This document shows, one piece after another, positions 3,383 through 4,350 of a stretch of 8,789 nucleotides of DNA. Source of the stretch: a virus (lineage: Duplodnaviria > Heunggongvirae > Uroviricota > Caudoviricetes); IMG/VR virus record IMGVR_UViG_2778261667_000002, positions 1 through 8,789 of that record, one strand, 5' to 3'. Position numbers and translations under genes: made by a program. Within the stretch, counting starts at the first letter, position 1. Each line of letters begins with the position of its first letter. The notes under the pieces were generated by a model that was not told the DNA's origin, did not search any database, and worked only from the letters and a program-made list of their open reading frames with translations.

Positions 3383-3958
3383 ATGTTAACGGCGAACGAT
3401 AACGCGTATGCAGAAGCAGATCTCATATTGAGTGACTTCATCGGTCAGCAGGAACGCTGGACACAAAAGCGAGAGGAACTTTATGCCTCGTTAGTTCGCA
3501 AAGGTGTCAACATTGAAACCGCTCAAAGCGGCGATATGACGGTAGTCAGTGTTGGATTGCATGGTGTGAGCGTGTCCGCAGCCAATCATGAGCCATACGT
3601 AGCGTTATCCGAGTCGATGGCAAGGCTAATTAAGCTTCTGAAGCAAACAGAAGCCAATAATGTTTTCATCGCCAAAAAGAACATCAATTTTTCTGCCGCC
3701 GTGTTCTGGATGATGAAGGGACTTGACGCCCGCCGGGCATCATGGCCTAAAGGGAGCTATTTATCGATGTTCCGTGGCAGCATTGGCAGCAAAGAAAAGC
3801 TCGTCGAATTCCTGCCGGAAGAAGCATTCGATATTGTGGAAGGGTGCGATGTGATGGTTATGCCTCGCCTGGTAATGATGAATGGAGATTTACAGGCACA
3901 GACAGACTGGTTCGCCACTGGTGTTGATATTATCGCGACTGACTGGGAGGTATTCTGA
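3383..3958 (+). CDS. Hypothetical protein, 191 aa
   Basis: ORF with strong SD AAGGAG 6 nt upstream of ATG. C-terminal half has Trp/Asp-rich signatures (ASWPKG, TDWFATG, ATDWEV). Family not recognised. Confidence 0.6.
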   Translation: MLTANDNAYAEADLILSDFIGQQERWTQKREELYASLVRKGVNIETAQSGDMTVVSVGLHGVSVSAANHEPYVALSESMARLIKLLKQTEANNVFIAKKNINFSAAVFWMMKGLDARRASWPKGSYLSMFRGSIGSKEKLVEFLPEEAFDIVEGCDVMVMPRLVMMNGDLQAQTDWFATGVDIIATDWEVF

Positions 3959-4350
3959 TGTACGAGACTACAAAATTAAGCATTCACGAAGCCTCCAATG
4001 TGGAGTGGAATATCGTTACCTGCAAGATTGTATCGTGTAATGCTGCGCGTACTGATGCAGGCCATAAGAGCACAATAACAGGCTACATGGTAATGGCTTA
4101 TAGGGGATTGAGAGTACGCTTTATCTGGAAAGCTCGGCAATTGACACCATTCAGAGAGCCGTCAATGCCATTAGAGGTAGAACAGGATTATTTAAGCCTG
4201 CCGGAAATAGACGGTGCAACGCTGGTGGATTCTGATGGTCGTAAGGCTGATTTTGAAGTCAGCTTAAAGGTGGCGCAGGCCGTAATTAATAACTCACGTG
4301 GTAAGTGGATCGCTAAGGTAAAACACGTCGTTCGCTTATCTCGCTGGTGA
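3958..4350 (+). CDS. Hypothetical protein, 130 aa, translationally coupled to the upstream gene
   Basis: ATG overlaps the upstream TGA (TGATG at 3956-3960); SD GGGAGG upstream. No recognisable motif. Confidence 0.55.
   Translation: MYETTKLSIHEASNVEWNIVTCKIVSCNAARTDAGHKSTITGYMVMAYRGLRVRFIWKARQLTPFREPSMPLEVEQDYLSLPEIDGATLVDSDGRKADFEVSLKVAQAVINNSRGKWIAKVKHVVRLSRW

Follow-up and report, generated by a model that had tools for sequence, protein, structure and literature searches.

A translationally coupled gene pair with a Tad2-like domain in D6-like phage-plasmids, probably an anti-defence cassette

What do phage-plasmids of the D6 type carry at the place where the related phage P1 has its genes ban and dbn, and what is this cargo for? 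The question is raised by a stretch of 8,789 nucleotides (IMG/VR record IMGVR_UViG_2778261667_000002, positions 1 to 8,789; the whole 8.8-kb stretch is called the window here), which belongs to a D6-like, P1-related phage-plasmid of Enterobacteriaceae. Two open reading frames (ORFs) on its plus strand, both starting with ATG, overlap each other: ORF191 (191 amino acids, 3383-3958), the counterpart of D6 orf6, and ORF130 (130 amino acids, 3958-4350), the counterpart of D6 orf5. Each is annotated as a "hypothetical protein" in the D6 record. Window positions 2930-4460 share 87% identity with Escherichia phage D6, and in more than 100 plasmids from E. coli, Salmonella, and Shigella, which have sizes of about 90 kb, this region is matched at about 97%. 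An original prediction, made from the sequence alone, had described the pair as a coupled cassette of unknown function between the tRNA region and the packaging operon; this location is correct, with tRNA genes on the 5' side and lpa, pacA, and pacB on the 3' side. In the following, we argue that the cassette is probably anti-defence cargo and neither a toxin-antitoxin (TA) pair nor a virion gene. In the reading that we favour, with a confidence only a little above even, ORF191 is a Tad2-family sponge for an immune signal, with an altered specificity and a second module, and ORF130 is a translationally coupled, dispensable accessory.

The first step is to ask whether these are genes at all. 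ORF191 is preceded by a strong Shine-Dalgarno (SD) sequence, AAGGAG (3372-3377, plus strand), located 5 nt before the ATG and kept in D6 as well as in two related loci, L002 and L005 (loci used for comparison carry such L numbers). At the junction of the two frames (3945-3960, plus strand), the stop codon TGA (3956-3958) and the ATG of ORF130 (3958-3960) form the overlap TGATG (3956-3960), and an SD-like GGGAGG (3945-3950), encoded within the conserved C-terminal D-W-E codons of ORF191, lies 7 nt before the ORF130 start. Coordinates, lengths, junction, and SD sequence agree with the original prediction, and a synteny comparison of the kind it had proposed revealed that pair and junction recur across related elements: the pair with the identical TGATG junction is found in 28 of 30 IMG/VR loci, and with a TGATG junction also in six of seven lineages diverged to 25-50% amino acid identity. 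In GTDB, no relatives were obtained when genome contigs were scanned. Between the window and D6, the dN/dS ratios (Nei-Gojobori method, NG86) are 0.106 for ORF191 and 0.110 for ORF130. Because of these ratios and of the recurrence of the pair with the same junction, we regard both as real genes.

The identity of ORF191 is given by its C-terminal half. Residues 102-190 (3686-3952, plus strand) match PF11195 (Tad2-like, formerly DUF2829) with an E value of 5.9e-10 and 40 bits at a cutoff of 25; distant members of the ORF191 family score 32-36 bits, and the one of L013 lies just under the cutoff (22.8 bits). Over its full length, the protein matches phrog_7362. The earlier statement that neither protein contains a recognisable motif therefore does not hold for ORF191, and "unknown function" has to be confined to ORF130, since RefSeq currently names the ORF191 homologues "Thoeris anti-defense Tad2 family protein". 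The family assignment is thus already in public annotation; new, as far as the literature found shows, are the combination of two domains, the changes in the pocket, and the coupled second gene. For structure prediction, a profile from the ORF191 family and SptTad2 was used, which collected nine full-length, distant relatives besides more than 1300 DUF2829 proteins. The AlphaFold2 model of the ORF191 monomer calculated from this alignment has a mean predicted local distance difference test (pLDDT) value of 87.3. By sequence and by predicted fold, ORF191 belongs to the Tad2/DUF2829 family.

Several Tad2 sponges have been solved structurally, namely SPO1 Tad2 (8SME/8SMF/8WJE), HgmTad2, which is AcrIIA7 (8KBI-M), SptTad2 (8WJD), and ModTad2 (9EIB). 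ORF191 shares with them the PF11195 domain, a helix alpha1 and an antiparallel sheet with inserted loops, a clamp of two tryptophans and an aspartate, a C-terminal D-W motif, and the status of a phage-borne accessory gene, at a sequence identity of 16-26%. It differs in being twice the size, owing to an N-terminal domain of 98 residues that resembles a double-stranded RNA-binding domain (dsRBD), in its translational coupling to an orphan gene, and in its pocket, where P stands for N, the following Gly is deleted, S is replaced by a variable residue and T by V.

The pocket deserves closer consideration. The ligand contacts of Tad2 are W25, N26, W73, S76, T78, and D79 in the SPO1 protein, equivalent to W21, N22, G23, W87, S90, T92, and D93 in HgmTad2; N26, S76, and T78 of SPO1 Tad2 and N22, G23, S90, and T92 of HgmTad2 make polar contacts to the phosphates and the adenine of glyco-cyclic ADP-ribose (gcADPR). 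Mapping by HMMER and MAFFT alignments placed the corresponding positions of ORF191 at W121 (3743-3745), P122, W176 (3908-3910), T179, V181, and D182 (3926-3928), and these were compared between 16 members of the ORF191 family and 93 other Tad2 sequences, the latter being biased towards SptTad2-like proteins. None of the three residues W121, W176, and D182, equivalent to W25, W73, and D79 of SPO1 Tad2, varies, be it among the 16 family members or among the 93 other sequences. Since this aromatic clamp with its acidic residue is kept while the polar contacts are replaced, the alignment argues for a protein that binds a ligand with a specificity unlike that of the gcADPR binders. Such variation would be in line with what is known of the family: experiments have shown Tad2 proteins to act as sponges for the signals of Thoeris, CBASS (cyclic oligonucleotide-based anti-phage signalling system), and Pycsar defence, and their range covers 3'cADPR, His-ADPR, N7-cADPR (ADPR, ADP-ribose), cGG/cGAMP, and cUMP/cCMP, partly via separate pockets.

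A number of observations weigh against the view of ORF191 as a Tad2-family sponge accompanied by an accessory protein. The canonical asparagine, present in 92 of the 93 other sequences, is replaced by a proline (P122) in 15 of the 16 family members and the next glycine is deleted, so that GWNG becomes (S/N)WP across the family; the canonical serine (93 of 93; S76 in SPO1) has become residue 179, which varies between I, T, A, M, and S; a canonical glutamine is G180; and the canonical threonine (88 of 93; T78 in SPO1) is V181. As four polar contacts are replaced family-wide, canonical gcADPR binding by ORF191 is doubtful. The motifs of the ORF191 subfamily were not found in the searchable tables of experimentally tested Tad2 homologues. 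Elements of the D6 type possess a canonical DUF2829 paralogue, orf114, which could supply the classical sponge function and so allow ORF191 to take on another role. As to the partner, the AlphaFold2 model of ORF130, calculated from four sequences, has a pLDDT of 38 and is unusable, and profile searches gave no significant remote homology for this protein. Finally, the timing of expression discussed below is deduced from synteny only, with no promoter identified.

The paralogue orf114 (YP_009914791, 146 amino acids) is encoded outside the window, at 88126-88566 of the D6 record NC_050154 (43127-43567 of L018, minus strand), beside a dUTPase gene and near cre. It has the same Pfam domain as ORF191 and occurs on the same type of phage-plasmid, and the two together mean that D6-type elements carry two Tad2-family paralogues. 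The two proteins differ in several respects: orf114 contains GWNG and W-V-P-S-V-G-D and reaches 81 bits compared with 40 for ORF191, it possesses a different, beta-rich N-terminal extension, and it is located at another locus where it has no ORF130-like partner. A surveillance preprint of 2025 reported "Tad2 AcrIIA7 (anti-Thoeris)" for phage-plasmids of both kinds, with 93% of the D6-like and 56% of the P1-like ones positive, the gene not being stated. Because P1 lacks ORF191, genes of the orf114 type may explain at least the P1-like hits.

With a classical Tad2 on the same element and four polar pocket residues replaced across the family, one has to consider that the Tad2 fold was repurposed in ORF191 and that ORF191, its N-terminal domain, and ORF130 bind another small molecule or a macromolecule, such as a host or phage protein or an RNA, in early development or lysogeny control. 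The best fold matches of the N-terminal domain, which are protein-binding "type B" dsRBDs, the location of the cassette at the place of the P1 replication genes ban and dbn, and a strongly conserved leader, which suggests regulated expression, would fit this explanation. On the other hand, the invariant clamp of two tryptophans and an aspartate is hard to explain without a ligand of the Tad2 type, Tad2 proteins of one and the same fold are known to differ widely in specificity, searches of Pfam and NCBIfam pointed to no helicase, replication, or regulator family, and the N-terminal domain has neither a dsrm match in Pfam nor, by eye, the basic motif at helix alpha2. We consider a repurposed fold to be an unlikely explanation, albeit one to be taken seriously, and keep to a signal sponge of altered specificity.

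What, then, is the second domain of ORF191? It comprises residues about 11-90 (3413-3652, plus strand) and consists in the AlphaFold2 model of a helix followed by an alpha-beta-beta-beta-alpha arrangement, which is the dsRBD-like fold of dsrm domains. Neither dsrm nor any other Pfam family was matched by seven such N-terminal domains at E values up to 10, and no PHROG family was found for the N-terminal domain of ORF191. RNA-binding dsRBDs have a basic motif of the K-K-x-A-K type at the start of helix alpha2; in ORF191, as judged by eye from the sequence, this helix begins with EPYVALSESMARL and lacks lysines. The likeness to dsRBDs is, on the model, probably a resemblance of fold only. Multi-domain Tad2-like phage proteins are common, and fusions of Tad2 with another sponge domain are frequent, as in Acb4-Tad2 and Sequestin/PF21825-Tad2 (Tal et al., PMC12265669). 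Like these fused sponges, ORF191 joins a Tad2 domain with a second small domain in one polypeptide; unlike them, its N-terminal domain is matched by neither the Acb4 profile PF13876 nor the Sequestin profile PF21825 nor other Pfam families, and its predicted alpha-beta-beta-beta-alpha topology is not the helical Sequestin fold. By the reasoning behind Sequestin, which goes from fusion with a sponge domain, or linkage to one, to a related function, one could imagine a composite sponge in which the remodelled pocket binds a signal new to Tad2, while the N-terminal domain, ORF130, or both would serve as new modules that bind signals or block effectors, perhaps in a hetero-oligomer. We rate this elaborate version as improbable, though attractive. 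Whatever its role, the N-terminal domain must do more than dock ORF130, because it is under purifying selection (omega 0.135-0.157) in a clade that lacks ORF130.

ORF130 itself is an orphan. Its only family match is phrog_7004; Pfam, NCBIfam, and PADLOC gave no match, and a Pfam search with eight family members found nothing shared. An exhaustive HMMER search revealed only 12 relatives among 1.84 billion representative proteins. Two non-significant matches in PDB sequences, one from a sequence search (macromomycin, E 0.56) and one from a profile search (dynein roadblock/LC7, E 0.44), were not used, and the possibility that ORF130 is a duplicated ORF191 domain was dismissed, as a family-versus-family comparison with hhalign gave a probability of 0.5%. 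The two proteins have opposite net charges, ORF191 being acidic with an isoelectric point (pI) of 4.9 and ORF130 basic with a pI of 9.4. ORF130 is the fastest-diverging coding sequence of the window, with 78% amino acid identity to its D6 counterpart compared with 90% for ORF191.

Wherever the context is readable, relatives of ORF130 are located immediately 3' of an ORF191 relative, down to about 25-35% identity. Such contexts were found in L002, L005, L013, L014, L015/16, L022 (split gene), L023, and L025 (Raoultella) and in 27 IMG/VR contigs. The reverse does not hold. In L006-L011, L024, L053, and L055, ORF191 relatives of 41-45% identity have no ORF130 behind them and run straight into the lpa intergenic region. 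L024 contains a remnant in which TGATG and ATG-ACC-GGA (M-T-G, as in L023) are followed by an early stop, and because this junction and start remnant is retained, ORF130 must have been secondarily deleted. In the clade without ORF130, both domains of ORF191 are under purifying selection, from which it follows that ORF191 works without ORF130; ORF130, for its part, seems to need ORF191, or at any rate this locus. Two decayed copies of the pair were also observed: the ORF191 homologue of L052 (IMGVR_UViG_2534681774_000017) has a premature stop and only a 93-residue match to ORF130, and in L022 (a contig of SRR32618728) the ORF130 homologue is split into ORFs of 40 and 85 amino acids; sequencing errors are possible in both cases. 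A protein of 112 amino acids (P0025) that looked like a natural single-domain version is actually truncated by a contig end.

These patterns bear on whether the two genes function together. They might be independent neighbours in an anti-defence islet, with ORF130 countering another defence system without any interaction with ORF191, an idea that concerns ORF130 only. Anti-defence genes cluster in phage genomes, according to the discussion section of the Yirmiya preprint, and both the faster divergence of ORF130 and its loss while ORF191 stays would be expected of such a neighbour. Yet relatives of ORF130 were never found away from an ORF191 relative, neither among the 12 hits in 1.84 billion proteins nor in the 27 IMG/VR loci, and the overlap of 1 nt persists over the whole range of 25% to 99% identity. 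Unrelated neighbours would be expected to be linked less tightly, although the elements sampled are related and conserved in synteny. Independence of the two genes is a real if minor possibility for ORF130, and we continue to regard it as a coupled, dispensable accessory of a probable ORF191 sponge.

The persistence of ORF191 alone also bears on another suggestion. The original prediction had counted such cassettes among accessory cargo, with anti-defence, exclusion, and TA functions as examples. Cargo in the form of a coupled cassette and the anti-defence option are borne out, the latter by the Tad2-like domain identified by sequence and fold, whereas the TA option is not supported, as ORF191 persists alone. 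An overlapping two-gene operon on a plasmid prophage does resemble a TA, addiction, or exclusion module, and the NCBI Prokaryotic Genome Annotation Pipeline (PGAP) and older records name some ORF191 homologues "MW1434 family type I TA system toxin". This name, however, could be traced only to a table of type I toxins in PMC6266405, the available passages of which describe no test. Neither protein contains a hydrophobic or transmembrane segment (maximal 19-residue Kyte-Doolittle means of 1.2 for ORF191 and 0.6 for ORF130), as a type I toxin should; a whole clade in which ORF191 is alone and yet selected contradicts the obligate co-inheritance of type II systems; no match to PADLOC or TA families was obtained; and D6 already carries phd-doc and another TA pair. 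We therefore consider a module of this kind very improbable.

The place of the cassette is informative with respect to its expression. The original prediction had assumed a lambdoid layout, with a late regulatory and lysis area upstream; this has to be corrected, as the element is of the P1/D6 type and the cassette occupies the ban-dbn slot. The homologous stretch of P1 is the C1-controlled ban operon, composed of Pban/Op72, a dicF-like region, trnA, trnT, tciABC, trnI, a spacer of 286 nt, ban, and dbn. The D6 type has the same order of tRNAs, tciA, tciB, and tRNA(CAT), followed by the first 185 nt of the spacer, but in place of the DnaB-like helicase gene ban and of dbn, which come next in P1, it carries ORF191-ORF130, directly followed by lpa and pacAB; in P1, lpa is preceded by phd-doc-pdcAB. 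P1 and P7 possess neither ORF191 nor ORF130.

A scan for sigma-70 consensus promoters gave none within the leader of ORF191, its single site (2762-2789) being located upstream of the tRNA. The downstream boundary of the cassette is marked by an inverted repeat before lpa, ATTAGATAA-N10-TTTTCTAAT (4352-4379, plus strand), which has a counterpart, GTTAGAAAT..ATTTCTAAC, at the equivalent place in L002. As P1 has the C1 operator Olpa at this position, the repeat is, by analogy, probably an operator of the 345-residue C1-like repressor of D6-type elements; a possible operator half-site, GTTAGAAAA, was also noticed at 90-98. Because of the synteny with the P1 ban operon, with no promoter in the leader and an inverted repeat of its own in front of lpa, the cassette is probably co-transcribed with the tRNA-tci operon, which is early and repressor-controlled, rather than with the late genes that depend on Lpa. 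Early timing would suit an anti-defence function.

Proximity to lpa-pacA-pacB might nevertheless suggest an ordinary late function in head completion, packaging, or lysis, and homology to such functions had been named at the outset as the finding that would speak against cargo. None was detected: the PHROG families of the two proteins have no structural annotation, and the domain of ORF191 is that of Tad2. P1 and P7 package their DNA with homologous pacA and pacB but have neither gene of the cassette, and the signature of a P1-type late promoter (-22 box ATGTGACTT, a spacing of 4 nt, and -10 TACCCT, as in LPpac) is not present upstream of ORF191. The pattern search, which allowed up to three mismatches, gave four hits compared with 6.75 expected; with one P1 promoter as template, it is a weak test. 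Altogether, a late function is hardly credible. The cassette is the most diverged part of the region, between conserved flanks, as is typical of accessory, arms-race cargo: at the DNA level, identity to L002 is 61% for ORF191 and 58% for ORF130 compared with 70-72% for lpa, pacA, and pacB, and identity to D6 is 88% and 78%, respectively, compared with 89-94% for the others.

In the model that we favour, the C-terminal domain of ORF191 most likely would oligomerise like Tad2, which forms homotetramers with the pockets located where protomers meet, and would sequester a nucleotide-derived immune second messenger that the host makes on infection or induction. Candidate ligands would be an ADP-ribose derivative of the type formed by TIR (Toll/interleukin-1 receptor) domain proteins of Thoeris or a cyclic nucleotide of CBASS or Pycsar, and their sequestration would keep the effector of abortive infection off. 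The N-terminal domain might represent a second module, either a second ligand site or a module for oligomerisation or target binding. ORF130 would be made in a fixed proportion from the same mRNA via the TGATG coupling and could bind to ORF191, which is acidic, or provide a second anti-defence activity.

The untranslated leader of 453 bp (2930-3382, plus strand) between tRNA(CAT) and ORF191 corresponds to the non-coding stretch of about 450 bp with a copy of a repeated motif that had been pointed out in the original prediction, and it contains several such motifs. Its identity exceeds that of every neighbouring coding sequence (79-83% versus 58-72% in the comparison with L002 and 94-98% versus 78-94% in that with D6). 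It contains no conserved ORF, and the insertions or deletions relative to L002 (61 and 16 nt) are not multiples of three. Its first 185 nt equal the P1 trnI-ban spacer and are shared with P1, P7, SJ46, and RCS47 at 89-98%, and about 112 nt are also present in phages encoding Shiga toxin 2c (Stx2c). No Rfam family was found for 2930-3382, and the folding z-score is only -2.0. Among the repeated motifs is a block of 39 nt (3143-3181) with further copies at 1632-1670 and 1965-2003. Another is GCACAACAGG, located at 3112 and, in a second copy, at 1329, just after tRNA-Thr. A third motif, the hairpin core GGAGGCACC, occurs three times on the plus strand (453-461, 2089-2097, and 3251-3259) compared with 0.04 copies expected. 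The three hairpins have a constant loop AGGCA and stems of 5 bp with compensating changes (GGGGG/CCCCC, CCGGG/CCCGG, and GGUGG/CCACC), and all adopt the stem-loop in the minimum free energy structure; the leader copy is GGUGG-AGGCA-CCACC at 3249-3263. Two of the three precede cargo genes, tciA at a distance of 47 nt and ORF191 at one of about 120 nt, and the motif is not found in the homologous ban operon region of P1. The segment 1979-2107, just upstream of tciA, has the 39-nt block and the AGGCA hairpin in common with the ORF191 leader and shows a sub-threshold match to the small RNA family STnc100 (41.3 bits at a gathering score of 47; E 2e-6).

The remaining features of the window are as follows. 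The tRNA region contains tRNA-Asn (1175), tRNA-Thr (1253), and a tRNA-Ser(UGA) of 87 nt (1783-1869), followed by tciA/TerB (2145-2579), tciB (2579-2743), and tRNA(CAT) (2854-2929); downstream of the cassette lie lpa (4459-4851), pacA (4848-6212), pacB (6212-7720), and, on the minus strand, the gene of the 345-residue C1-like repressor (7746-8783). For tRNA-Ser, the best Rfam score is tRNA-Sec-like (42 bits, under the gathering score), and tRNAscan-SE gave no amino acid for its counterpart in the D6 record. The tRNA at 2854-2929 was called Met (CAT) by ARAGORN, whereas its positional counterpart in P1, trnI, is annotated as tRNA-Ile2 (CAT, ileX-like); lysidine modification probably makes it an isoleucine tRNA. 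In the divergent D6-like element L002 (a contig of GCA_036607165.1), the region aligned to window positions 1783-2743 is without tRNA-Ser, tciA, and tciB, while tRNA(CAT), the leader, and the ORF191-ORF130 pair are kept. On the 5' side of the tRNA cluster, roughly at the place of the dicF-like region of P1, a perfect inverted repeat of 18 nt (593-610/654-671) is followed by a strong terminator-like hairpin, GCCCATCTTAGGGTGGGC, with a T-run (691-708), and the segment 593-708 may be a small RNA gene.

Among 5426 complete E. coli genomes, 98 (about 2%) contain a D6-like phage-plasmid, in every case as a plasmid, and the surveillance preprint mentioned above also reports such elements in Salmonella and Shigella lineages of clinical concern. 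The strictly linked ORF130 and the N-terminal domain of ORF191, both orphans, are concrete candidates for new anti-defence modules. Should ORF191 turn out to be an ordinary Tad2, the outcome would be a better annotation for orf6 and orf5 of D6 and for their homologues in about 120 plasmid records. If it is an active sponge of new specificity, it would help to explain how these elements establish themselves and are induced in hosts with signalling-based defences, and the known ligand range of the Tad2 scaffold would be extended.

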